Assembly: GCA_964605725.1 (NCBI GenBank)
Contig: CAZSDQ010000001.1
Location: forward strand, 12,090 to 76,089
DNA length: 64,000 bases
Direction of reading: 5' to 3'
Origin: an uncultured Candidatus Saccharibacteria bacterium
GTDB lineage: Bacteria; Patescibacteriota; WWE3; UBA101185; UBA10185
Shown: positions 3,025 through 47,745 of the stretch, piece by piece
Position numbering within the stretch: the stretch's first letter is position 1
How the letters are laid out: each line of letters starts with the position of its first letter
The notes under the pieces: model-generated
What the model was told of the DNA's origin: nothing
The model's input: the letters and a program-made list of their open reading frames with translations, nothing else
Databases searched by the model: none
Program-made: the position numbers and the translations under genes

Positions 3025-3102
3025 GCCCCCATAGCTCAGCGGATTTAGAGCACTCGTCTTCGGAACGAGGGGTCGGGGGTTCAAATCCCTCTGGGGGCGC
3101 CA
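3025..3102 (+). tRNA. tRNA-Arg (anticodon UCG), CCA encoded
   Basis: Manual cloverleaf: acceptor GCCCCCA/TGGGGGC, D arm GCTC..GAGC, anticodon stem CTCGT/ACGAG with loop CTTCGGA, T arm GGGGG-TTCAAAT-CCCTC, discriminator G then CCA. Confidence 0.9.
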
Positions 3103-3225
3103 TTTGATGTAAAGGTATTGAGCAAGGGATTTGAATGTCGGAGTGAACGAAGTGAAAGAGACGGGGTCGCGAGCTTTACAGATTGTTTGAGCGTAAGCGA
3201 GATAAAATGTGTTAAGACTTGTGAC

Positions 3226-3246
3226 CAAATCCCTCTGGGGGCACCA
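3226..3246 (+). repeat. Duplicate of the tRNA-Arg 3' end (T-loop to CCA)
   Basis: CAAATCCCTCTGGGGGC at 3226-3242 is a 17/17 match to 3082-3098 and is followed by ACCA (GCCA in the gene). The copies are separated by about 125 nt of non-coding sequence. Confidence 0.8.
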
Positions 3247-8838: not shown

Positions 8839-8913
8839 GCGACGGTAGTTCAGTGGTAGAATGTCTCCTTGCCAAGGAGAAGGTCGCCGGTTCGAATCCG
8901 GTCCGTCGCTCCA
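8839..8913 (+). tRNA. tRNA-Gly (anticodon GCC), CCA encoded
   Basis: Acceptor GCGACGG/CCGTCGC, anticodon stem TCTCC/GGAGA with loop TTGCCAA. Confidence 0.9.
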
Positions 8914-8963
8914 AGTTTTTGTTTTGAAAAGGTAACAAGTTAGGTTGTACGTTTTTTAGTTAT

Positions 8964-9038
8964 GCGACGGTAGTTCAGTGGTAGAATGTCTCCCTTCCAA
9001 GGAGAAGGTCGCCGGTTCGAATCCGGTCCGTCGCTCCA
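8964..9038 (+). tRNA. tRNA-Gly (anticodon UCC), CCA encoded
   Basis: Identical to the GCC gene except for the anticodon loop (CTTCCAA). Lies 125 nt downstream in tandem. Confidence 0.9.
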
Positions 9039-9093
9039 CTTTTTTATATAATTTTTTCCAAATAATTAAGGTATAATTGAGGCGTTACATACT

Positions 9094-9167
9094 GGCCTGG
9101 TCGCCAAGTGGTAAGGCAAGGGTCTGCAAAACCCTTATCGCGGGTTCGATTCCCGCCCAGGCCTCCA
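9094..9167 (+). tRNA. tRNA-Cys (anticodon GCA), CCA encoded
   Basis: Acceptor GGCCTGG/CCAGGCC, anticodon stem AGGGT/ACCCT with loop CTGCAAA, T loop TTCGATT. Confidence 0.9.
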
Positions 9168-9214
9168 TATTGCTAAAAGTGTGTAATAATTGGTAGAATT
9201 TAGTGTTTAAACAT

Positions 9215-9290
9215 GGGGCGGTAGCCAAGGTGGTCAAGGCACCGGTCTGAAAAACCGGCTATGTGGGTTCGACTCCCACCCTCCCCACCA
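9215..9290 (+). tRNA. tRNA-Phe (anticodon GAA), CCA encoded
   Basis: Anticodon stem CCGGT/ACCGG with loop CTGAAAA, T arm GTGGG-TTCGACT-CCCAC. The acceptor stem has one C-U mismatch. Confidence 0.8.
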
Positions 9291-9342
9291 AATCCTGATA
9301 TATGTTGTTGTAGCAACTAATTAATTATCTAATAAATAATTT

Positions 9343-18057: not shown

Positions 18058-18957
18058 CTAATAGTTATTTACGAATTCAGCAACATATTGATTTACCCTA
18101 TCAAAACTTTCATCAGTGATTTCTTTACTCATTAAACACAAAATCAAGTCCTTGTTCTCACTTCTAATAATCCCACAGTTATGATACATTGCAGTTGAAA
18201 AACCTACTTTGTGATAAAAGGCTAAATTTTCTTTTAAATATGGATTTAAAGCTTCGTCGTAGGAAGTAGGGTTTAGGTAACTTAATAACAAATTGACACT
18301 TTCATCGGAAATCCATTTTTTATAAAAAATACCTTCTATAAGATAGCCACACTTTTTTGGATTTGTTAGAAGCTCCTCATCAAAAAGATCGGCAGTTTCA
18401 TATCCAGAAATCTTCTTAAACTCGGTATTTAAATACTCTTCTCCTAGGTGTCTTTTCAAAATAATTGGTGCGGCGTTATCTGACTCTCTGAGCATCAATT
18501 CCACTACTTTTTTTAATTCATATTTCGAACCAAATCCAAAGGAGTGAATTGTTCCGTATTGATTGAAAAAGTCTCCGGGTTTATATATAAGGGTATCGTC
18601 CCATTTTAATTCACCTCTTTCAACGTCTCTAGTAACAATGTAAGCTATTGGTAATTTAAATAGAGATAGCGGATAAAATTCTTCATTCGCGTTCATTTCA
18701 AATACTGTCCCACCTATCATGTCTTTAATGTATATCCCGTAAACACCTTCCTCATATGATACTTTATTTTTTAGCTCTTCGAATCTTTCGTTATTAATTT
18801 GTGTTATATCTTTTTCTTGAGGAAGGTCAAAATCAAAATTTATATTATGCAAGAGATTTTTTATTTGAGAGTTATTACCTAGTTCATTTTTAAATACTAT
18901 TGTTATAAATAGAATTGAGGATATGAATACTATTATCTGCCATGTTTGTTTTTTCAC
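18058..18957 (-). CDS. Serine hydrolase, class A beta-lactamase-like fold
   Basis: SxxK (SLFK), SDN (RESDNAA) and a KTG-like triad (HKVGFS). N-terminal TM or signal sequence. Confidence 0.65.
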   Translation of the reverse strand: MKKQTWQIIVFISSILFITIVFKNELGNNSQIKNLLHNINFDFDLPQEKDITQINNERFEELKNKVSYEEGVYGIYIKDMIGGTVFEMNANEEFYPLSLFKLPIAYIVTRDVERGELKWDDTLIYKPGDFFNQYGTIHSFGFGSKYELKKVVELMLRESDNAAPIILKRHLGEEYLNTEFKKISGYETADLFDEELLTNPKKCGYLIEGIFYKKWISDESVNLLLSYLNPTSYDEALNPYLKENLAFYHKVGFSTAMYHNCGIIRSENKDLILCLMSKEITDESFDRVNQYVAEFVNNY

Positions 18958-19019
18958 ATATGTATTTTATATGATTTTTGTTACGTGTTAAAATACAAGC
19001 ATTCGGTTTTAGAAAATTT

Positions 19020-19053
19020 GGGTCTGTAGCTTAGTGGTAGAGCGCCCGGTTTT
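19020..19053 (+). other. tRNA 5' half fragment (acceptor 5' strand, D arm, anticodon stem 5' strand, up to about nt 34)
   Basis: GGGTCTG-TA-GCTT-AGTGGTA-GAGC-G-CCCGG-TTTT, then the tRNA structure stops. Confidence 0.6.
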
Positions 19054-19062
19054 AAAAAGTTT

Positions 19063-19139
19063 GGGCGATTAGCTCAGTTGGTTAGAGCATTCGGTTTACA
19101 TCCGAAAGGTCGTAGGTTCGATCCCTACATCGCCCACCA
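19063..19139 (+). tRNA. tRNA-Val (anticodon UAC), CCA encoded
   Basis: Acceptor GGGCGAT/ATCGCCC, anticodon stem TTCGG/CCGAA with loop TTTACAT, T arm GTAGG-TTCGATC-CCTAC. Confidence 0.9.
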
Positions 19140-19166
19140 AAATTTTGCTGTGAGTGAAACGAACAG

Positions 19167-19208
19167 ACATCCGGTAGGTCCTTGGTTCGAATCCATGCGG
19201 ACCCACCA
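19167..19208 (+). other. tRNA 3' half fragment 1 (from anticodon nt 35 to CCA), acceptor strand complementary to the 19020 fragment
   Basis: ACAT-CCGGT-AGGTC-CTTGG-TTCGAAT-CCATG-CGGACCC-A-CCA. CGGACCC pairs 7/7 (one G-U) with GGGTCTG at 19020-19026. Confidence 0.6.
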
Positions 19209-19235
19209 AATTTTCGTACGCGAACGAAGTGAGCG

Positions 19236-19278
19236 TACATCCGAAAGGTCACAGGTTCGAATCCTTTACCACCCACCA
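19236..19278 (+). other. tRNA 3' half fragment 2 (Val-like, from anticodon TAC to CCA)
   Basis: TACATCCGAAAGGTC is identical to the intact tRNA-Val over 15 nt. It then has a different T arm (ACAGG-TTCGAAT-CCTTT) and acceptor strand ACCACCC-A-CCA. I saw no matching 5' half in the window. Confidence 0.6.
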
Positions 19279-19301
19279 AACTTTAATTTAGATAAAAAAA
19301 T

Positions 19302-19338
19302 CCCCCGATCTTGTGATTAATCAGGGGTTTGTTGTTTT
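19302..19338. terminator. Bidirectional terminator candidate between the tRNA array and the convergent nuclease gene
   Basis: A7-CCCCCGAT...ATCAGGGG-TTTGTTGTTTT: a hairpin flanked by an A-run and a T-rich run. Confidence 0.45.
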
Positions 19339-19348
19339 GTACCAATCT

Positions 19349-20254
19349 TTAGGTAAAAGGCAGACTTAATTGTTTAACGATTTCAGGTCTACACTGAAAT
19401 ACATAATCACAATAAGCACAACTAGGAGTGAGATTCTTCCGAAACTTATGATCTGTTATACTTTTAGCCATTCTTTGAAAAACTAGATCTAACAAATCAC
19501 GATATTCTTTTAAGTCACCATTTATAAGCAATTTGTTATTAGATTCATATCTTAGCCAATAAATAAGATATCCGACCGGATACGTTCCAAATTGTTGTTT
19601 ATACAGCATTATGTTCATTGCTGCCTGTATTATCAACCCATCAGGTAATAATATTAAAGTAGGGTTTCTATCTTTAAAAACAGGGTCCAACATGCTCGTA
19701 CTGTATTTAACGATTAGATTAGGGGAATAATCCTTTGTCAAATCGCCATTTTCTATTATTTCCGGACGCGCTGCTTTTATCCATGAGATATCGCACGGTA
19801 CAATATGATCTAATCTCCCTGAAAGATAATTATAGGGTAACCCGGAACACTTTATTCGAACAGTGTATTCAATATTTTTAATTTTGAGGGGTTCAGGACT
19901 ATCCAAATTTTGAATCCAATAGTTTTTAATGCAGGCTGCTCCAATTTTACTTTGTTCTTTAGCGATACCTTTATCAACAAAAGAGAGTACTTCAGAGTTG
20001 TCTTTCATAGCAATATCCCACACTCTATACCAATCTCTCGTAGCTGATTTAATACTATAATAAAAGAACTTTCTGTAGCCTGTGTGTTTTCTGTATAAGT
20101 TTCTGATAAATTTACTTACTTCTGCTCCTCTTATACGGTAATAGTCAGTTTTTCTAGGTTGTCTCCCACTAAAGTTCAAGAATTCGAACAGTTTAGCACA
20201 TCTTGCGTAAGCCAATACTGAGGACACGCTCACTACTGATTTCGTCTTTCCCAT
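19349..20254 (-). CDS. PD-(D/E)XK-superfamily nuclease, Cas4/RecB-like with Fe-S cysteine pattern
   Basis: One N-terminal Cys (YARCAKLF) plus a C-terminal C-x2-C-x5-C (SCAYCDYVFQC), the 4-Cys arrangement of Cas4/AddB-type nucleases. No CRISPR array or other cas genes lie nearby. Confidence 0.55.
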   Translation of the reverse strand: MGKTKSVVSVSSVLAYARCAKLFEFLNFSGRQPRKTDYYRIRGAEVSKFIRNLYRKHTGYRKFFYYSIKSATRDWYRVWDIAMKDNSEVLSFVDKGIAKEQSKIGAACIKNYWIQNLDSPEPLKIKNIEYTVRIKCSGLPYNYLSGRLDHIVPCDISWIKAARPEIIENGDLTKDYSPNLIVKYSTSMLDPVFKDRNPTLILLPDGLIIQAAMNIMLYKQQFGTYPVGYLIYWLRYESNNKLLINGDLKEYRDLLDLVFQRMAKSITDHKFRKNLTPSCAYCDYVFQCRPEIVKQLSLPFT

Positions 20255-20391: not shown

Positions 20392-20465
20392 TGGGGGATC
20401 GTCTAATGGTAGGACGCCGGACTTTGAATCCGTTAATTGGGGTTCGACTCCCTGTCCCCCAGCCA
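20392..20465 (+). tRNA. tRNA-Gln (anticodon UUG), CCA encoded
   Basis: U1-A72 acceptor TGGGGGA/TCCCCCA, anticodon loop CTTTGAA, T loop TTCGACT. Confidence 0.88.
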
Positions 20466-20694
20466 GTAAGAGCAACACCACTAGGGACAAAGTTCTAACC
20501 CAGCCAAATCAAGCCCAAAACAGTGTTCGAACTCTAGATATCAAAAAGGGTAGGATTGAGGACAGATGTTGTGGAAAGAACACAATAGGTGTTGTCAGAT
20601 CAACATAAAAACCTTCTAAATTTTAGGTTCGAACTCGATGTGTAAGCTTTACTTGTAAGCACGTTTCTTGTAAGATTGTGGACAGTATATAAAT

Positions 20695-39681: not shown

Positions 39682-42600
39682 CTAAATTACCAAATAAATA
39701 TCAATGTTTCCCATATCACTTCTAAAATAGATCTTTGAATCATCCATTTTGTTTCCATTTACAAAAAGACCTTTTTTCTCACCTCTTTCAACTTTTATAC
39801 TGTAGTAGGTATTGTTGTGAGAGTAGATCATTTCATATTCGGTCCATTCTTTTGGTAAAACTGGCTCTAATGTAAAATAGTCCTGCTTAACCTTAAAACC
39901 TAAAATATCCTCGATTGCTACCCGATACAACCAACCTGCAGATCCTGTATACCAACTCCAGCCACCTCTAGCTAAATGTTGCGGGTTAGAATAAATATCT
40001 CCAGCCATAACATACGGCTCGGATTTATAAATATTTACGCTATCTCTATCAAGAGTTCTATTTATAGGATTCAATGTATTAAACAACTCATAGGCTTTAT
40101 CGCCATTTTTCATCATCGCGTAAGCTTTCATTGCCCAGACAGCTCCGTGGGTATACTGACCGCCGTTTTCCCTAATACCTTCGGGGTAACCCTGAATATA
40201 ACCGGGGAATGGAGTAGATTCTTTAAAAGGCGGCGTCAGCAGTTTTATAATTTTGTTCTTCTTATCCTCAAGATATTTTTCGTGGCTCAACATAGCTTTT
40301 TCAAGCTTCCCTGGTGACGCCGCCCCTGATATTACAGCCCAAGATTGCGAAATAGAGTCTATAGTGCATTCATTGTTTAAATGAGTTCCCAAGGGGCTTC
40401 CATCATCAAAAAAGGCCCTTTTGTACCATTCTCCGTCCCAACCATTTTCATTTACATTATTCTTAAGTTGTTCAACTACAGACCGCAATCTTTCGATCTC
40501 ATTTCTTCTGTCTGTTTTTTCAAGAATCTTTATAAAATTCTCAATTACAGTTATTAAAAACCAAGCAAGCCACACACTTTCTCCCTTACCTTCATCCCCG
40601 ACACTACTTAACCCGTCGTTCCAATCTCCTGAACCTATTAGAGGTAATCCGTGTGACCCGAATCGTAATGATCTATTTATGGCCCTTATACAGTGGTCCA
40701 ACACATTACCTCTTTCATCTGAAACGTTGGGTATGCCGTACAAACTTTCTTCATGAGATTGCAGTTGTTGCATTTCTAAATACGGTACCTCTATTTTTAA
40801 AATATCCATATCTCCGGTTTTTTCAATGTAGTAAGCTACAACATACGGCAACCAAAGCAAATCATCACTAATTTTTGTCCTAACCCCCGCCCCCGAAGGA
40901 TAGTGCCACCAATGTTGGACATCCCCTTCTTTAAATTGATGCGCACAACACAATGTTAGGTGATCTCTAACTTTACTGGGATTACAATAAACCAATGACA
41001 TCACATCCTGAAGCTGGTCTCTAAATCCGAAAGCACCTGCTGCTTGATAAAAGGCTGTTTTTCCGTCAACTCTACAAGATAATACTTGATATAACATCCA
41101 ATTATTTATCAAGTAATTAAATTTTGTATCCGGAGTATTAATTTTGATCTTAGACTTTACTTGATTCCATTTTTCCTGAATGTCTTTAACACTTTGTTCA
41201 ACTGCCTCTAGATTAGTATATTTATCTATTAATCTATTAACGTTGTCTACGTTATCATCCTGACCCAATATAAATAACAGGCTTACTTTAGAATTTTTAG
41301 GAATTTCTACTTCCGTAGTAATAACACCACATTTATCAGAAACTGATTTAAATCCTGTAATTCCTCTCACATTTTTATAAATCCATAAAGGCACCTTTTT
41401 AGAATTGCCCATTCCAAAGAATTTTTTTCTATCAGAAGTTGCTGCCACAACAGGTCTGTTTGTTGCCATAAAAGCTGTTTGATTCGAAAAATTATTGCTA
41501 TAAGGATTTTGGGCTAGGATTGACTGTCTAACAGGGTCAAATTCAATTTTTAAATTCTCTTGATTAGTATACCTGTCTTCTCCCAATGTAAATTCCACAT
41601 AATATGTGGCTTCCATTGTTTTTGTGTATTTACTATTGTTTTTTAGTGTTAATTTAAGAATCTTAACCGGGTCATTAATATCAACTAAAACTTTTAAGGT
41701 GTGATCTACGTCAAAACTTTCACCTTTGTATTCGGTATAACCTTGGGAATGAGTTACTCTAAAATTACCACTTTTGTTGGGGAGCGGAGTAGCGCTAATT
41801 ACCTTTTCTGAATCAGCATCTTTTAGATATATTATTTCGCCCTGAATATCACTTACAAAATCATTAGACCACGGGGATATCTTATTCATCTGACTATTAA
41901 TATTCCACGTGTAACCTAAACCCGATTCTGTTACCATAGTACCGAATCTTTCGTTAGCAATTACATTAGACCACGGGAGTGGGGTAGGGTTCTCTGCTGA
42001 AATATCCATAACATAGTTCTCACCATCTTTTGAAAATCCGCCTATGCCGTTATAGAATTCTAAACCTTCTTTAAAATCTACTGCGGGTACTATACTTTCA
42101 ACATAGTCCTCGTAAACAACATCCTTAATACCTACGGATTCAGGTTCAGAATATTTAGACGCAAGGTTTATCTGGTCATCAAGTGATCCTAAAGAAGAAT
42201 CTAATACAACCTTAGCCAATGACAGTATCGTGTACCTTTCTTCTAAAGTCATATTAATAACATTGAGAACATATACGCCTGAATCTTTGTATGGGTGAGA
42301 TAACGAATTTTCTACAACCTCATAAACATCCTGCTCCAATGTTTCCTCGTAGCTAATCTTCTCGTCTACTATAAAAACCAGGTCAAAGTTAAATCTCAAC
42401 ATTCTCAAATATTCATGTAATAGAACTAAGTTTCTAACTAGCTCAATATTTTTACTATTTACCTTAACGGCAAGTATCCTATTTTCACCGGATATTGAAA
42501 ATCTATATAAAAGACTTCTACCGGTAGTATGATCAATACTTTGAGTCTCTTTTAATCTGTAATCCGGATAAACCAATCTTGAAAATAGTTTTTGAAATAG

Positions 42601-45600
42601 TATTTCCTGACGTACATCTATTCCCAAATGAGTTCTTTTTGCTTCTATATAATGAGTGTTAAGATAACGGAGCTCGTTCATCTGCTCACCGGTAAATAAA
42701 AGCTCCCTCGCTGCTTTAATTTCATGGATATTGTTGGCGTAACCGTATATAAAGTGTATTTTTTTGGATTCACCAGGTTTTAATGAAATCTTGTATCTTA
42801 TACTAAAAATGGGGTCCAGAACTGTTCCAATACTATTTGTTAATTCGGAGACCATAGCTGCAGGGTTTTGAATGTGTTTAATCCTCCCTATAAAATTTTG
42901 CCTGCTTGTTTCATAAGAATCTGTTTTTAAATTTACATCTTCAGAAAAACCAAAATGAAAAGCATATTTTTCAATATCTCTAATGTATCGTTTCTTTCTT
43001 TTAGCAATTAGTACACCGTTTTCGTAAGCAGTTTCAATAAAAAGTTTATTAAAAACAGGATGTGATAGACCTGCTTTTAAATCATCAAGCATTATCTCGC
43101 TGTATGTAGTAATTTCATACTCTTTACTGTTATCCGATTGATTAGTAAGTGTAAGCTCTCTTATCTCAAAGTTTTTTTCAGGTGGAACAAATATGTTTAA
43201 ATTAGTTAAAGTCTTCTTATCTAACCTACTAAATTCAGCATATTCTGTGTAGAACCTAACCTCATAATTATCCGGTTTTACTAAGGTTGGTTGGTATGTA
43301 GCAGACCAAAAATAACTATTTTCTACATCCTTTATAAAAATATGGTTCCCCGAATCATCTAAAGTAAGATCTTCATTATATCTATTAATAAACGTATCTC
43401 GGAATTTGCTGAACCCAGCTCCGGAATTTGAAATCATTACGGAATATTTTCCATTACCGTATAGTTGGGCTATTGGGAATAAGGTATTTGGAGTATTTGA
43501 GTACCTCACTCTTTCTTTTTCATACCTTCTAACAGTACTTAATTTTCTATCAAATCCGTATTGATTAGCTTCAACTATATTTGATACTTGAGGTATTTTT
43601 TCATCTAATAAAATGTCACAAGACTTTATATAATCGTTGCTATGCAGTCTGCCCACCATTATTCTATTATTAAGTGCGTTATTGATTGCTACCAAACTCA
43701 TACCTTGGTGGTGAGCAGTATAAATTTTTACATTTTCTCCAACTTTCGGTTCGTTTGTAGATCTGTTAAAATCAACAGCTTCGTAAAAACCGTAAGGGCC
43801 TAAAACACCATCATCTTCCAATCTATGCAGGTTTCTCTCTGATTCTTCGGGAGCAATCATTAATGATAGAAATGATGAATAAGGAGATACTACCAAATCT
43901 CTTGAGTCATATCTTTTAAGTGCTATCTCAGGAACTCCCATCATCTTATATTGATAGTTAGAATCAAAGTCGAATGCATCAAAATTAGATTCTGAGATTC
44001 CCCACGGAATACCGTTTTCTTCCGCATATTTTTTTTGAATATAAAATATTTGCTCGGTAGTTTGACTCAAGAAAGTATTTTTCTTTTCATTTAACAAGAG
44101 CGCCGGTAGAAGATATTCAAACATAGTCCCACCCCATGACATAAGGTAAAACTTTCCTTTCCTGATTCTTACCGGACGTGATAGATTGAACCAATGCTTA
44201 ACCTCAACTTGATCTAAAGCTATAGCCACATAACTAGCTATTCTTGCCTCCGACGCTAAGATATCGTAGTAACTAGAATCTCTCTGTCTTGCAGAGACGT
44301 TATAACCAATAGAAAACACCGACATGTTTTTATCATAAAGAAATGTAAAATCAGTTTTTTGATAAATTCTTCTTGAAAGTTTTGATAGTTGGAGAAACTT
44401 CTTGCTAATTTCAAGGTTAGACTTTTTAAGTGCACTAGACATTGACGAACAAGCTTCCTCAGCTAACATCAGAGCAGCAACAAAATTACCACTATCTGCT
44501 GTGGATATATATGGGTTAAGTGGTTCCAATTTTTTCAAGTCATACCAGTTAAACAAATGTCCTCTATATTTTTTTAATCTATAAACAATATTAAGAGTGT
44601 TCCATAATCTTGAAACGTAAGTTTCTAAATCTATTATTTTCAAGTCATATGCAGAGATCAGGGATAGTATGTAAAAACCAATATTTGTCGGGGACGTTCT
44701 ATAAGTAATTTTTTTTGAAGGTGTTAGTTGTATATTGTCAGGCGGGAGATGATTACTTTCTTCATTTACATGCTGTTCAAAAAATGACCAAATCATTTTT
44801 GAATAACTAAGCATTTTATCCTTATCTTTGAGCCTGTCTGAAATTTGTATTTGTTTATACGGTTTACTAATTACAAAAACAAATATAGGAGACAAGATCC
44901 AAATAAATAAGGTAAAAATATTTAAAACAGTTAGTTTTCCCAAAACAAATAAAGAAAACAGAATAATTAGATTTAAATACACCGCCTTTGAAGTCAGGAA
45001 GTATCCAAGGATATTATTTTCACTTTTAACATGCTCTGCCTCACTGTGTGTCATCCATTCAAGTAGATTTCTATGGGTAATGAGCCTTTTTAAAGTTCTA
45101 AAAATTGAGAGTATTTTATTTATAGCAGTAACAGATGCCATAATAAAAAATGAGGAAGTAAGTATAATTTTCTGCAACATAAAAGAGAGAGTTAAACGTA
45201 TTTTTTCTGAAATAGGAAGTTTATGTACCCAATATCTCTTTATAGAAAAAAATTCAAACAATAGATGTCCAAAAAATAAGACAAGGATATAGATATTAAT
45301 TGCTTCAGAAGATGAAAAAAACCAGTTTATATAAAGTAAAATAATAAATATCGGTACTACCAAACTTCTTCTAAGATTATCTATAATCATCCACAAAGAC
45401 ATCATATCCAAGGGATTTTTTGCTTTCGTACCGTTAGCAAGAGGTATCATAGGGCATAACCACGGTAATAATTGCCAGTCACCTCTTACCCATCTGTTAT
45501 CTCTATTAACATAACTTTTATATGAAGTAGGAAAATCTTCTACTAAGCTGGTATCTGACAAAAATCCGGATTTTGCAAAGCAACTTTCTATCAAGTCGTG

Positions 45601-47745
45601 GCTTAAAAGAGCATTTTCCGGGAATTTTCCTAACAAAGTCTCTTTTACAGCCCTTACATCAAATATGCCCTTACCCATAAAATTAGATCTATTAAAAACA
45701 TCCTGATAAATATCAGATATAGCTGTGGAGTATGAGTCAAAACCGCTATCTGTTACAAATATTCTTGTAAAAGGAGAGTTATGTTCTGTTTCAGGTTTTA
45801 TGATAATCCTAGGCTGTAAAAACCCATAACCTCTCTTAATTATTTTTTTATCTTCATCTAAAATCGGAAAATTTAATGGGTGCGCCATCGCACCTATCAA
45901 TTTTAACGAAACATCAGCAGGTATTGAGGTATCTTCGTCCAATGTAATAACGTACCTTACGCCATACAATCTTGAGACATCGCCATCTACAACGGAGAAT
46001 GATTTATTTTCCGACTTGTTTTTTTCAGATAACCATTCTACCAGCTGCATTAATTTTCCTCTTTTCCTCTCCCAACCCATCCAGCAACCTTCTCTTGGAT
46101 TGAAAAGTCTTTTTCTATGGAAAAGATAAAATACATCAAAACCGGAAGACTTGTATTTCATATTTAACTGTTTTATCTTTTTTCTTAGATAAGTTAGGTC
46201 TTTACTATCTTGATCGGTTTCTTCATAAGGGGAATCTTTAAAATCACTTAAAAGTGCAAAATAAAGATTATTAAACTTGTTCGTTAAAAATCTTTTTTCT
46301 AAATTTTCTACTAATATATCTACTTTCCCTTTCCCGGAAAAAATAGACGGAACAACAACCAATGTCTTATATTCTTCGGGTATGTGGTTTTCAAATTCTA
46401 GTTTTGGAGGTAGCGCCGGCGGCATTAACCATGTAAAAAATTTATTCGTAAAGAAAATACAAAGATTTGATGAAGGTACAATCTGTAGAAACGTTAAAAT
46501 AATCGTAAGTAAAAGGTTTTGTGTATTTTTAAAAAAGAACGAAAATGAGAAAAGTGAAAGTAAAATAACCAAACTTACATTCAACCCAAAATACGATAAA
46601 TCCGGATACTTTTTTACTAGTATTTTAAGTGCACCTTTCAGAGGAGGTTTATAACCTATCTTTCTAGCAAAAGAATAATAACCATCATCTATTAAATAAT
46701 ATCCAACATGTCTTTGAACATCTATATTTGCTTCGGAAGATTGTTCAACTAGTTTTCTGGCAATTTCTGACTCACTGAAATTACTGTTTGAGCTCATATC
46801 CTCAATAATATGTCGATATCTATCGCGGCTAATATCATCCATTAACGGGTATATACCGGAAGGATCAATTGATAAAGTGTTTTCTACAATACTTACCTTT
46901 GTAAAAAACTTGCTCCAATTTATGTATGAAAAATTACGGATCGAGGTTACTGCATTATTTAAACCTTGTTTCAAATCTAAATCCCTTAAAACACTTGCTC
47001 GTGTAAACTCTTCGAGGTTCAAGTCCTCTTCGTGAATTTTTCCTTCAACAAGCTTCAAGGCCTCTTCTACACGATAATCTAGTTCTCTTATGTCTTCTAA
47101 GACTAATAATAGTACATGGGGGCTAACTGAAACATCTTTTATAATTTTTTTAATTCTTTTGGCTGGATTTTTACCTTTATCTATGTCTGAAGATATGTCT
47201 GAAACAATACTTGCAGCTAATTTACTATTTTCTATTTTTTCTTTTATTTCTAACCCTTTATCTAAAATTGATTTTATAATTTCAAATTTAATAATTGTTG
47301 GTAAAACCCAAAGTTCCAAACTTGATAGAGGGTATATTTTTTGATAACCCTTAAGAAAAGGTATTAATGTTTCTTCAGAAAATTCATATATTGATGCCTC
47401 CAAATACTTTCTAGCGATGTAATGAATTTGAAAATATATTTTACTGTACTCTGATAAGGGTAACTTATTTAATATTTTTGGTTTAAATGTTTCTGAAAAA
47501 TAGGAAGATTGCTGATTAATTAAGTAATAATTATCTAGTATCCATGAAGATGACAAGGGAACAATTTCAGGATTTTTCTCAAACTCAATCACTAGATATG
47601 AATATAATGAATCTATATTTTCTATTAAACTCTTGTAATCAAGCTGTCTATCAAAATTAAATTTTGAAAATAAACGTTTCGAAGGAAACTTTTTTTTGAT
47701 AGCAATATCCCTACCTAGGGTATAAAAATTTACTTTATTCTCCAT
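39682..47745 (-). CDS. ndvB: Cyclic beta-1,2-glucan synthase-like giant protein (NdvB/ChvB/Cgs architecture: membrane GT84 domain plus C-terminal GH94 phosphorylase-like domain)
   Basis: 2687 aa. TM segments flank a GT domain (VITLDEDT, RWVRGDWQLLPW). The C-terminal GH94-like region carries GSGDWNDGLS and RENGGQYTHGAVWA motifs. Confidence 0.85.
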   Translation of the reverse strand: MENKVNFYTLGRDIAIKKKFPSKRLFSKFNFDRQLDYKSLIENIDSLYSYLVIEFEKNPEIVPLSSSWILDNYYLINQQSSYFSETFKPKILNKLPLSEYSKIYFQIHYIARKYLEASIYEFSEETLIPFLKGYQKIYPLSSLELWVLPTIIKFEIIKSILDKGLEIKEKIENSKLAASIVSDISSDIDKGKNPAKRIKKIIKDVSVSPHVLLLVLEDIRELDYRVEEALKLVEGKIHEEDLNLEEFTRASVLRDLDLKQGLNNAVTSIRNFSYINWSKFFTKVSIVENTLSIDPSGIYPLMDDISRDRYRHIIEDMSSNSNFSESEIARKLVEQSSEANIDVQRHVGYYLIDDGYYSFARKIGYKPPLKGALKILVKKYPDLSYFGLNVSLVILLSLFSFSFFFKNTQNLLLTIILTFLQIVPSSNLCIFFTNKFFTWLMPPALPPKLEFENHIPEEYKTLVVVPSIFSGKGKVDILVENLEKRFLTNKFNNLYFALLSDFKDSPYEETDQDSKDLTYLRKKIKQLNMKYKSSGFDVFYLFHRKRLFNPREGCWMGWERKRGKLMQLVEWLSEKNKSENKSFSVVDGDVSRLYGVRYVITLDEDTSIPADVSLKLIGAMAHPLNFPILDEDKKIIKRGYGFLQPRIIIKPETEHNSPFTRIFVTDSGFDSYSTAISDIYQDVFNRSNFMGKGIFDVRAVKETLLGKFPENALLSHDLIESCFAKSGFLSDTSLVEDFPTSYKSYVNRDNRWVRGDWQLLPWLCPMIPLANGTKAKNPLDMMSLWMIIDNLRRSLVVPIFIILLYINWFFSSSEAINIYILVLFFGHLLFEFFSIKRYWVHKLPISEKIRLTLSFMLQKIILTSSFFIMASVTAINKILSIFRTLKRLITHRNLLEWMTHSEAEHVKSENNILGYFLTSKAVYLNLIILFSLFVLGKLTVLNIFTLFIWILSPIFVFVISKPYKQIQISDRLKDKDKMLSYSKMIWSFFEQHVNEESNHLPPDNIQLTPSKKITYRTSPTNIGFYILSLISAYDLKIIDLETYVSRLWNTLNIVYRLKKYRGHLFNWYDLKKLEPLNPYISTADSGNFVAALMLAEEACSSMSSALKKSNLEISKKFLQLSKLSRRIYQKTDFTFLYDKNMSVFSIGYNVSARQRDSSYYDILASEARIASYVAIALDQVEVKHWFNLSRPVRIRKGKFYLMSWGGTMFEYLLPALLLNEKKNTFLSQTTEQIFYIQKKYAEENGIPWGISESNFDAFDFDSNYQYKMMGVPEIALKRYDSRDLVVSPYSSFLSLMIAPEESERNLHRLEDDGVLGPYGFYEAVDFNRSTNEPKVGENVKIYTAHHQGMSLVAINNALNNRIMVGRLHSNDYIKSCDILLDEKIPQVSNIVEANQYGFDRKLSTVRRYEKERVRYSNTPNTLFPIAQLYGNGKYSVMISNSGAGFSKFRDTFINRYNEDLTLDDSGNHIFIKDVENSYFWSATYQPTLVKPDNYEVRFYTEYAEFSRLDKKTLTNLNIFVPPEKNFEIRELTLTNQSDNSKEYEITTYSEIMLDDLKAGLSHPVFNKLFIETAYENGVLIAKRKKRYIRDIEKYAFHFGFSEDVNLKTDSYETSRQNFIGRIKHIQNPAAMVSELTNSIGTVLDPIFSIRYKISLKPGESKKIHFIYGYANNIHEIKAARELLFTGEQMNELRYLNTHYIEAKRTHLGIDVRQEILFQKLFSRLVYPDYRLKETQSIDHTTGRSLLYRFSISGENRILAVKVNSKNIELVRNLVLLHEYLRMLRFNFDLVFIVDEKISYEETLEQDVYEVVENSLSHPYKDSGVYVLNVINMTLEERYTILSLAKVVLDSSLGSLDDQINLASKYSEPESVGIKDVVYEDYVESIVPAVDFKEGLEFYNGIGGFSKDGENYVMDISAENPTPLPWSNVIANERFGTMVTESGLGYTWNINSQMNKISPWSNDFVSDIQGEIIYLKDADSEKVISATPLPNKSGNFRVTHSQGYTEYKGESFDVDHTLKVLVDINDPVKILKLTLKNNSKYTKTMEATYYVEFTLGEDRYTNQENLKIEFDPVRQSILAQNPYSNNFSNQTAFMATNRPVVAATSDRKKFFGMGNSKKVPLWIYKNVRGITGFKSVSDKCGVITTEVEIPKNSKVSLLFILGQDDNVDNVNRLIDKYTNLEAVEQSVKDIQEKWNQVKSKIKINTPDTKFNYLINNWMLYQVLSCRVDGKTAFYQAAGAFGFRDQLQDVMSLVYCNPSKVRDHLTLCCAHQFKEGDVQHWWHYPSGAGVRTKISDDLLWLPYVVAYYIEKTGDMDILKIEVPYLEMQQLQSHEESLYGIPNVSDERGNVLDHCIRAINRSLRFGSHGLPLIGSGDWNDGLSSVGDEGKGESVWLAWFLITVIENFIKILEKTDRRNEIERLRSVVEQLKNNVNENGWDGEWYKRAFFDDGSPLGTHLNNECTIDSISQSWAVISGAASPGKLEKAMLSHEKYLEDKKNKIIKLLTPPFKESTPFPGYIQGYPEGIRENGGQYTHGAVWAMKAYAMMKNGDKAYELFNTLNPINRTLDRDSVNIYKSEPYVMAGDIYSNPQHLARGGWSWYTGSAGWLYRVAIEDILGFKVKQDYFTLEPVLPKEWTEYEMIYSHNNTYYSIKVERGEKKGLFVNGNKMDDSKIYFRSDMGNIDIYLVI

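Follow-up and report, generated by a model that had tools for sequence, protein, structure and literature searches.

A tRNA gene that is broken by an insertion and made good by the tRNA that the insertion brings is known from tRNA-dependent lysogeny in actinobacteriophages, where a prophage disrupts an essential host tRNA gene, does not restore it and supplies its own tRNA with that isotype (Guerrero-Bustamante and Hatfull 2024, PMC10865867). In an archaeal case a tRNA gene that is complete has a 5' fragment of another copy upstream of it; the locus is polymorphic in a natural population, and the arrangement has been ascribed to the insertion of mobile DNA, a 1.8-kb element encoding a recombinase (Sugahara et al. 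2012, PMC3293823). Group I introns are frequent in the anticodon loops of Patescibacteria tRNA genes (PMC13011429). Here we analyse a tRNA-Val locus at which halves of broken tRNA-Val genes enclose a complete one. It lies in a stretch of 64,000 nucleotides from an uncultured Candidatus Saccharibacteria bacterium (contig CAZSDQ010000001.1), called the window throughout, which has ~33% G+C, ordinary cellular genes and 11 tRNA genes with encoded CCA. The explanation that we favour, and judge reasonably probable, is serial gene-in-gene replacement of the resident tRNA-Val by a small tRNA-Val cassette. We found no description in the literature of nested or interrupted bacterial tRNA genes of this arrangement.

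By analogy, tRNA-dependent lysogeny is the closest known concept. As there, a resident gene (here Val-A) is split, between positions 34 and 35, by an insert that carries a tRNA-Val with the same UAC anticodon, and on which the host would come to depend. Unlike lysogeny, which involves a whole prophage, a tyrosine integrase and a common core of ~10 bp, the Val insert is ~114 bp long, has neither core nor integrase and is nested within its own kind. The locus shares with the archaeal case a tRNA 5' fragment upstream of a whole gene for the same tRNA; it differs in being bacterial, in having a bare tRNA cassette as its insert and in showing no sign of rejoining. The insert shares with the Patescibacteria introns its phylum and its place in the gene, and it too comes after a U and has G as its last base, but it lacks a group I core, is far too short and is itself a complete tRNA gene. 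A group I intron was rejected for want of such a core, which Rfam detected neither in the window (gathering score) nor at the locus (E<=10).

The features of the locus are given below by position in the window. L-numbers (L011, L013 and so on) are labels for related loci on other contigs.

18966-18994, + strand: promoter-like site (TTTATA, 17 nt, TG-TAAAAT) from a consensus scan
18997-19278, + strand: the whole nest, in the order remD, leader A, 5' half A, cassette B, 3' half A, hairpin A, 3' half C
18997-19009, + strand: remD, the outermost 5'-half remnant, AAGCATTCGGTTT, with the D-stem end, the 5' strand of the anticodon stem and the TTT of a B/C-type tRNA-Val
19010-19019, + strand: leader of cassette A, TAGAAAATTT; the identical 10-mer precedes Val-A in L013, L174, L235, L310 and others
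19020-19052, + strand: 5' half A of tRNA-Val, GGGTCTGTAGCTTAGTGGTAGAGCGCCCGGTTT, positions 1-34, with U32 U33 U34 as its 3' end
19053-19166, + strand: cassette B, a 114-nt insertion made up of leader, tRNA-Val(UAC) B, trailer and hairpin
19053-19062, + strand: leader of cassette B, TAAAAAGTTT, 10 nt
19063-19139, + strand: intact tRNA-Val(UAC) B (Val-B), called by ARAGORN and by Rfam (tRNA, 74.2 bits)
19140-19147, + strand: trailer of cassette B, AAATTTTG, 8 nt
19148-19166, + strand: hairpin B, CTGT-GAGTGAAACGA-ACAG (CTGT-GA-GT-GAA-AC-GA-ACAG), 19 nt
19167-19208, + strand: 3' half A of tRNA-Val, positions 35-76 including CCA, the same as the 3' part of intact Val-A in relatives
19209-19238, + strand: right end of cassette A, the trailer AATTTTC and then hairpin A, GTACGC-GA-AC-GAA-GT-GA-GCGTAC (GTACGC-GAACGAAGTGA-GCGTAC)
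19236-19278, + strand: 3' half C of tRNA-Val, a relic with decayed T stem (ACAGG/CCTTT) and acceptor strand ACCACCC
19302-19327, no strand assigned: G+C-rich hairpin between two T runs; the call is for the - strand, and TTTGTTGTTTT comes after it on the +

Val-B is the sole tRNA called at the locus by either program and is presumably the one complete, functional gene of the nest. Intron-aware ARAGORN, run on the native sequence as the earlier note on this DNA had proposed, gave nothing except Val-B; Rfam searches at the gathering score (window) and at E<=10 (18900-19400) returned tRNA plus chance matches only. The 114-bp insert contains no protein-coding gene and the cassettes no promoter. Judging from the flanking signals, the whole nest is probably read as a single transcript from the promoter-like site to the hairpin at 19302-19327, likely a bidirectional terminator that would end it. 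The minimum-free-energy fold of this transcript was uninformative, as was that of the tRNA-Arg element described below. Upstream of the locus is a GTATTTTATATGAT...TGTTAAAAT block that most related loci also have.

The halves belong to each other rather than to the gene they enclose. 5' half A reads GGGTCTG TA GCTT AGTGGTA GAGC G CCCGG TTT, and its acceptor strand GGGTCTG (19020-19026) pairs 7/7, with one G.U, with CGGACCC in 3' half A. Joining 19052 to 19167 gives 75 nt that rebuild a cloverleaf with a 7-nt anticodon loop and are called tRNA-Val(tac) by ARAGORN, with mismatches at C27.U43 and U50.U64; the same sequence is an intact gene in relatives, 5' half A differing from the first 33 nt of intact Val-A (L013, L174, L235) only by C6T and C13T. 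The anticodon-stem strands pair in nested order: TTCGG..CCGAA outermost, CCCGG..CCGGT in the middle and TTCGG..CCGAA innermost. As to the outer layer, remD matches Val-B positions 24-35 at 12/12, was also detected as repeat D2 and is present, in variable form, in relatives. 3' half C has a T stem and an acceptor strand unlike those of Val-B, and its T stem is intact (ATAGG/CCTAT) in L013, L257 and L315; the last 2-3 nt of hairpin A (19216-19238) double as its anticodon bases. CCA is encoded on all three 3' ends. The parts recognised in the earlier note hold up (the 5' half, the intact gene at 19063-19139, the 3' half that pairs with and can be joined to the 5' half, the further 3' half with its different T stem and acceptor strand, the three CCA ends and a hairpin before each 3' half), with one correction: base 19053, which it had given to the 5' half, belongs to the insert. 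remD, the strict nesting order and the 10-nt TARAAARTTT leader of each inner unit are additions to it.

The relatives supply the empty site. At L013/L014, where the neighbour protein has 73% identity to the window's, the order is remD, TAGAAAATTT, a complete 5' half C (GGGTGGTTAGCTCAGCTGGTTAGAGCATTCGTTTT), TAGAAAATTT again, an uninterrupted Val-A (68.5 bits for Rfam tRNA in L013), AATTTTC plus hairpin A, and a 3' half C with acceptor strand ACCACCC and intact T stem. CGCCCGGTTT is joined directly to ACATCCGG (also given as ACATCCGGTAGG) and Val-A is intact at these loci and at L174/L297/L305, L235/L286/L294/L295/L307, L284/L285, L309/L310, L290/L306, L313 and L315. An uninterrupted gene at this position, which the earlier note had named as a possible outcome, is present in several lineages, and since Val-A is contiguous there, 19053-19166 is a precise 114-nt insertion between positions 34 and 35 without target duplication. 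The filled site, with the same junctions, occurs in the window and in L011, L257/L289/L296, L258, L260, L301 and L314.

Val-A is in turn nested. In the lineages with intact A, the gene is flanked on one side by GGGTGGT..., a 5' half, and on the other by ...ACCACCCACCA, a 3' half; the two pair 7/7, and their junction falls at the same point. The 5' half that matches 3' half C (GGGTGGT...) is found upstream of cassette A in L013, L301, L310 and L315. The empty sites read exactly GGTTTACAT and every Val junction comes after GGTTT. Four junction pairs place the break at 34|35, the canonical sublocation named in the earlier note. No repeat flanks any Val insert: the left junction, GGTTT|TAAAAAG, and the right, GAACAG|ACATCC, have no common core. 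The nested states found in relatives are the following.

L174/L297/L305, L235/L286/L294/L295/L307, L284/L285, L290/L306, L313 and L315: A intact inside decaying C halves
L257/L289/L296, L258, L260 and L314: B inside A
L301: complete triple nest of remD, 5'C, 5'A, B, 3'A and 3'C
L256: reverse order, a C-type gene (GGGTGGTTAGCTCAG...) inside A, behind the leader TAGAAATTTT
L309/L310: downstream of 3'C, one more type-1 hairpin and an A/C chimera of a 3' half, for which recombination at GGTTCGAATCC is the best explanation

We weighed a true fourth layer in L310 and rejected it, the extra 3' half being better read as that chimera. Compared with L301, the window is missing 5' half C, which fits a deletion between two CATTCGGTTTTAGAAAATTTGGGT repeats. 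A scan of genome contigs with the left-junction pattern GTTTTARAAARTTTGGG gave mostly A/T-rich noise, 2/119 being relevant among the matches listed.

The inserting unit has a common layout. Over ~112-116 bp it runs from a leader of 10 nt (TARAAARTTT) through an entire tRNA-Val(UAC) with CCA and a 7-9-nt A/T trailer to a 19-23-nt hairpin. Two types recur: type 1 has a B/C-type tRNA and the hairpin CTGT-GAGTRAAACGA-ACAG (for example GGTTAGAGCATTCGGTTTACATCCGAAAGGTC, trailer, then CTGTGAGTRAAACGAACAG), and type 2 an A-type tRNA and the hairpin GYAYGY-GAACGAAGTGA-GYRTAC. Both hairpins follow a common design of stem, tandem G.A, 2 bp (AC/GT or GT/AC) and GAA triloop. Over 10 lineages, 85% of the cells of hairpin A are paired and 4 pairs have changed on both sides; covariation is 0.344 vs 0.217 in shuffles, with 0/500 shuffles reaching it. 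Compensatory changes preserve the pairing of hairpin A. The sequence of hairpin B does not differ among the filled lineages (7/7), although the adjacent spacers are variable. Scanning the window for G.A hairpins returned 3 where shuffles gave 0.02, and the 11-mer GAACGAAGTGA has exactly two copies, one at 19222-19232 and another next to tRNA-Arg, at 3145-3155, the latter being the shared motif that the earlier note had seen. The third G.A-hairpin match, at 1210-1228 (AGGA-GATTGAAAAGA-TTTT), lies inside an ABC-transporter ATPase open reading frame (ORF; 669-1346), has a weak A/T stem and is probably due to chance.

Insertion at the Val locus is precise, repeated and target-specific, makes no duplication and has a structured right end. 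Under serial gene-in-gene replacement, each cassette would enter the anticodon of the resident tRNA-Val(UAC) exactly at 34|35 (GGTTT|ACAT) without duplicating the target, thereby killing the resident gene and bringing a substitute with the same anticodon. The substitute would have the same target sequence and be open to the next insertion, and once it had replaced the resident the insert would be indispensable to the host. The two cassette types would alternate, so that the window would represent, from outside to inside, the remnant, a layer whose 5' half C has been lost, A and then B. Only the innermost gene would give rise to mature tRNA; the outer halves would decay, or would be lost when leaders, trailers or T loops, all of them repeated, recombine with one another. 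We infer that a dedicated trans-acting enzyme would move the cassette. Such an enzyme may work on single-stranded DNA, reading the terminal hairpin together with the short GGTT(T) target, like the HUH enzymes of IS200/IS605 type or those associated with REP elements.

Miniature elements of IS200/IS605 type and REP elements moved by HUH (Y1) transposases are tiny, are inserted 3' of a short fixed sequence without target duplication, have an end hairpin and leave seamless empty sites. The Val cassette resembles them in its small size, its fixed target (GGTTT|A, and GGGTT|C for the T-loop elements below), its seamless empty site and its terminal hairpin. To our knowledge these elements do not carry tRNA genes as cargo. 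It is possible, and we put it forward tentatively, that the cassettes are active and self-targeting, forming a new class of miniature mobile element whose sole cargo is an essential tRNA gene. Such a cassette would home to the cognate anticodon loop, probably as single-stranded DNA or via an RNA intermediate. Homing would use the terminal G.A hairpin and GGTT(T), and in T-loop or D-loop elements a variable segment that pairs with the flanking tRNA may contribute. Having killed and replaced the resident copy, the cassette would be indispensable and would be engaged in an ongoing replacement race with the second cassette type.

Several observations weigh against serial replacement. No inserting enzyme was identified in the 64 kb of genome that are visible: Pfam scans of the 40 window ORFs and of the genes called beside the locus found no integrase, transposase or reverse transcriptase, and no Y1/HUH transposase was present among the ORFs scanned in the 64-kb window and the short loci. 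Nor was a left-end hairpin comparable to the right-end one found, apart from the tRNA's own arms. Unlike IS200/IS605 and REP elements, then, the cassette has no recognised left-end hairpin and no transposase, and the likeness is an analogy of mechanism, not membership. All examples sit at what is probably each genome's single tRNA-Val(UAC) locus, which gives no direct sight of movement elsewhere. On a tree of the neighbouring gene the filled and empty states are interleaved, a pattern that recombination between lineages inside the locus can explain, so that the independent insertions may be as few as three. Hairpin A tolerates G.T pairs (8 cells). These suit a role at the DNA level no better, and perhaps less well, than one at the RNA level, where the hairpin would serve to process or stabilise the upstream tRNA. 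Finally, the A halves vary at only 2/75 sites in five crown lineages (Val-B, 1/77), and in L314 the acceptor strand of 5' half A is kept and both substitutions in 3' half A strengthen pairing, by forming T6-A67 and by making the T stem perfect. This is not what a pure relic predicts.

The low variation of the A halves could reflect a recent recombinational spread of the filled haplotype, an idea prompted by mosaics in L011 and L301 together with the interleaved states. The L011 Val locus (8900-9320) is identical to window 18940-19360, yet the adjacent 301/304-aa protein is 74% identical; in L301, likewise mosaic, the right part is identical to the window's and the upstream part divergent. The recombination breakpoints in these two loci appear to lie within or beside the Val locus.

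Elements of a related design follow other tRNA genes. In the window the example is found after tRNA-Arg.

3103-3246, + strand: element after tRNA-Arg (3025-3102), made up of antisense segment, G.A hairpin, hairpin core and 3'-end copy
3125-3135, + strand: segment antisense to the tRNA-Arg T arm
3137-3162, + strand: G.A-type hairpin holding the 11-mer GAACGAAGTGA, followed by the 63-nt hairpin core
3226-3246, + strand: 21-nt copy of the tRNA-Arg 3' end, starting at C56, a perfect repeat

An element that follows tRNA-Gln in L013 (7607..7486, minus strand) has 84.5% identity to positions 3125-3234; both of its flanks match tRNA-Gln and not tRNA-Arg, and the antisense segment tracks the local T-arm sequence in other lineages. 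Structured T-loop elements of ~110-190 nt follow tRNA-Arg, Gln or Phe, with insertion after GGGTT and the break at C56. These similarities suggest a wider family that targets tRNA genes in the clade. Rfam found nothing for the Arg/Gln elements in L011 and L013. The antisense segments were also read as group I internal guides, which the junction sequences do not fit. T-loop elements occur as tandem pairs in L011 (7700..7300, minus strand) and L294. In L013, L257, L011, L258 and L294 the intact tRNA-Gln is preceded, at a distance of ~110 nt, by a decayed 5' fragment of tRNA-Gln (nt 1 to about 22); a G.A hairpin on the opposite strand adjoins this fragment in L013 (7839..7815) and L257 (1020-1038) and is decayed in L011 and L294. 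The 5' fragment together with the downstream 21-nt 3' copy suggests that tRNA-Gln, too, has been replaced in place. After the window's own tRNA-Gln (20392-20465), positions 20466-20690 hold no T-loop element, unlike in relatives, and contain a possible eroded 3'-end copy (ACCCAGCCA). This region is ~200 nt of non-coding sequence with two copies of GTTCGAACTC ~100 nt apart.

An alternative account of the Val locus builds on the rearranged tRNA gene array raised in the earlier note. An ancestral series of tRNA-Val genes with hairpins between them would have taken on its nest-like order through unequal crossover, deletion and gene conversion among the repeated modules, with no insertion at all. 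Recombination between modules is clear: the window has lost 5' half C between CATTCGGTTTTAGAAAATTTGGGT repeats, L310 carries the chimera at GGTTCGAATCC, and L301 and L011 are mosaics. That part of the proposal stands. What such recombination does not create is the nesting, since crossover in a tandem array yields chimeras or tandem copies rather than a 5' half, a whole gene and the matching 3' half. Each layer would need two deletions, exact at 34|35 and at the unit boundary and without microhomology, and this at least three times over; moreover, the halves of one layer are complementary to each other and differ from the inner gene at 4 acceptor pairs. A simple tandem array was seen in no relative examined. 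We consider array rearrangement improbable as the origin of the nest.

Scarcely better or worse placed, and likewise improbable, is the proposal that the halves are decayed scars of tyrosine integrases, left when islands or prophages entered at the anticodon loop, each with a replacement 3' half, and were later lost, leaving 3' halves and arm remnants including the hairpin. Tyrosine integrases reportedly cross over at the anticodon-loop and T-loop sublocations of tRNA genes (Williams 2002), and both breaks are represented here, the first at Val and the second, at C56, beside tRNA-Arg, Gln and Phe in the clade. The T-loop cases have perfect 21-nt direct repeats typical of att cores, their remnants contain the same hairpin motif, and at Val, as at attachment-site scars, displaced 3' segments with CCA lie downstream of an intact gene. 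The canonical breakpoint claimed in the earlier note is thus upheld; the common core, the hybrid gene and the integrase that should go with it are missing. The intact Val gene is not a hybrid of a host 5' part and an element 3' part, and the host 5' half is kept upstream and matches the displaced 3' half. No core repeat surrounds the Val insert, the 21-nt repeats being confined to the separate T-loop elements, and identity between the 3' halves and the intact gene is only 61-73%. The 10-nt leader, and likewise the 7-9-nt trailer plus hairpin, are the same after independent events and have nothing between them, an outcome not expected of random deletion in a large element; the insert is just 114 bp, a whole tRNA gene; and, as the earlier note had also stated, no integrase is encoded by the 40 window ORFs or the genes beside the locus.

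A third proposal is that the outer halves function: the halves themselves, a hairpin-capped 3' half or the acceptor/T-arm minihelix of the A halves would be processed, joined or used as a two-piece or tRNA-like RNA. Besides the low variation of the A halves, near that of functional Val-B, both window substitutions in 5' half A keep pairing as G.U, and L314 retains the 5' acceptor strand and gains pairs in 3' half A. 3' half C differs at 1/42 nt between L315 and L013, whose neighbour genes are 50% and 74% identical to the window's, and the insert follows U and ends in G as group I introns do. Archaea rejoin split tRNAs by a protein endonuclease and a ligase; we know of no archaeal splicing endonuclease in bacteria. 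Neither a group I nor any other ribozyme match was found, and the 114 nt, mostly tRNA, leave no space for a catalytic core. Intron-aware ARAGORN yields only Val-B, and a joined outer tRNA would be redundant with an inner gene of the same anticodon.

The fate of the outer halves bears on the same proposal. 5' half C carries substitutions, internal deletions or an insertion depending on the lineage and is lost or eroded in the window, L313, L235 and L290. 3' half C is shortened in L174, lacks CCA in L257, is deleted in L258 and L260 and is eroded in L235 and L290, and 5' half A is eroded after nt 13 in L314. This lineage-specific decay is relic-like and therefore counts against a general split-tRNA function; most outer halves appear to be relics. 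Set against the 2/75 variable sites of the A halves in the crown lineages, the spacers are variable at 3/28 sites (p=0.12) and spacers plus remD at 9/41 (p=0.0013); over hairpin A plus 3' half C, the window and L257 have 11/63 differing sites (p=0.006). The joining at the RNA level that the earlier note had floated is not borne out, the halves being decayed or deleted in several lineages and a group I core being absent; the conservation of the A halves leaves room for some RNA role. A functional hairpin-capped or two-piece tRNA-like RNA made from the retained halves is a possibility that we rate as unlikely. Dead halves also contain further small G+C-rich hairpin insertions of 26-41 nt: in L314, on the minus strand, within the outer gene's 3' half, and in L315 within the D loop of 5' half C. 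Some have GCGAAG-type tips, and one is flanked by a CATA repeat.

The least tenable explanation, and one we consider next to impossible, is an assembly artefact arising from repeated tRNA-like sequence: although stretches of N interrupt the locus in two JGI scaffolds (L004, L005) and in L260, and the contigs of L256, L259 and L309 end within it, at least six independent metagenome assemblies from different samples and pipelines, as well as NCBI assembly GCA_046128295.1, read through it with identical sequence, so the Val nest is not the mis-assembly that the earlier note had allowed for. The gaps in the two scaffolds are as expected of a repeat-rich stretch, each alternative state of the locus recurs in 2 to 5 independent assemblies, and the neighbour gene (301 aa) is present on 23 contigs. 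Integron-type (G|TT) boundaries and a Campbell-type single crossover between two Val genes were tried and rejected, as the junction sequences do not fit.

The hairpin cap also occurs in viral contigs. In IMG/VR the 14-mer GCGAACGAAGTGAG has at least 120 matches and the 17-mer TGTGAGTGAAACGAACA has 18 (L017-L136 and L261-L278 cover both motifs). Many of these lie at hairpin tips on diverse contigs, with stems that are unrelated yet self-complementary, and sometimes in several related copies per contig; the motif may thus be widespread in viral contigs. Among the matches listed, these hairpins are not beside tRNAs. Rfam gave nothing overlapping the motif in 12 viral loci, and viral contigs had no matches to the Arg/Gln core, the A-type tRNA or the interrupted C-type sequence. 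The anticodon-arm 19-mer GGTTTACATCCGAAAGGTC was found at 4 viral loci, of which L279 and L280 carry a tRNA-Val whose positions 8-48 equal those of Val-B, with no nesting.

Ordinary tRNA-Val(TAC) genes on G+C-rich metagenome contigs (L283, L287, L293, L311 and L312) match cassette tRNA A at 39/41 nt over positions 8-48 and carry B's acceptor stem (GGGCGAT/ATCGCCC). Saccharibacteria live on Actinobacteria, and a transfer of the tRNA gene from host to Saccharibacteria is conceivable from this resemblance. Elsewhere in the window, positions 39682-47745 (- strand) are taken up by a single ORF of 2687 aa.

Annotation pipelines report one tRNA at the Val locus and, if the favoured explanation is right, overlook its history. 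The hairpin of stem, tandem G.A, 2 bp and GAA loop, found beside broken tRNA-Arg, Gln and Val genes and, as GCGAACGAAGTGAG, in viral contigs, may be the hallmark of a broader family, so far undescribed, of RNA signals or small elements. If serial gene-in-gene replacement is true, it would offer a route to tRNA halves in a bacterium without integrases or splicing, and so bear on the origin of split and intron-containing tRNA genes. The tRNA gene itself would then be the unit of insertion, a near-identical copy taking over an essential gene from the inside in a minimal form of genetic addiction.

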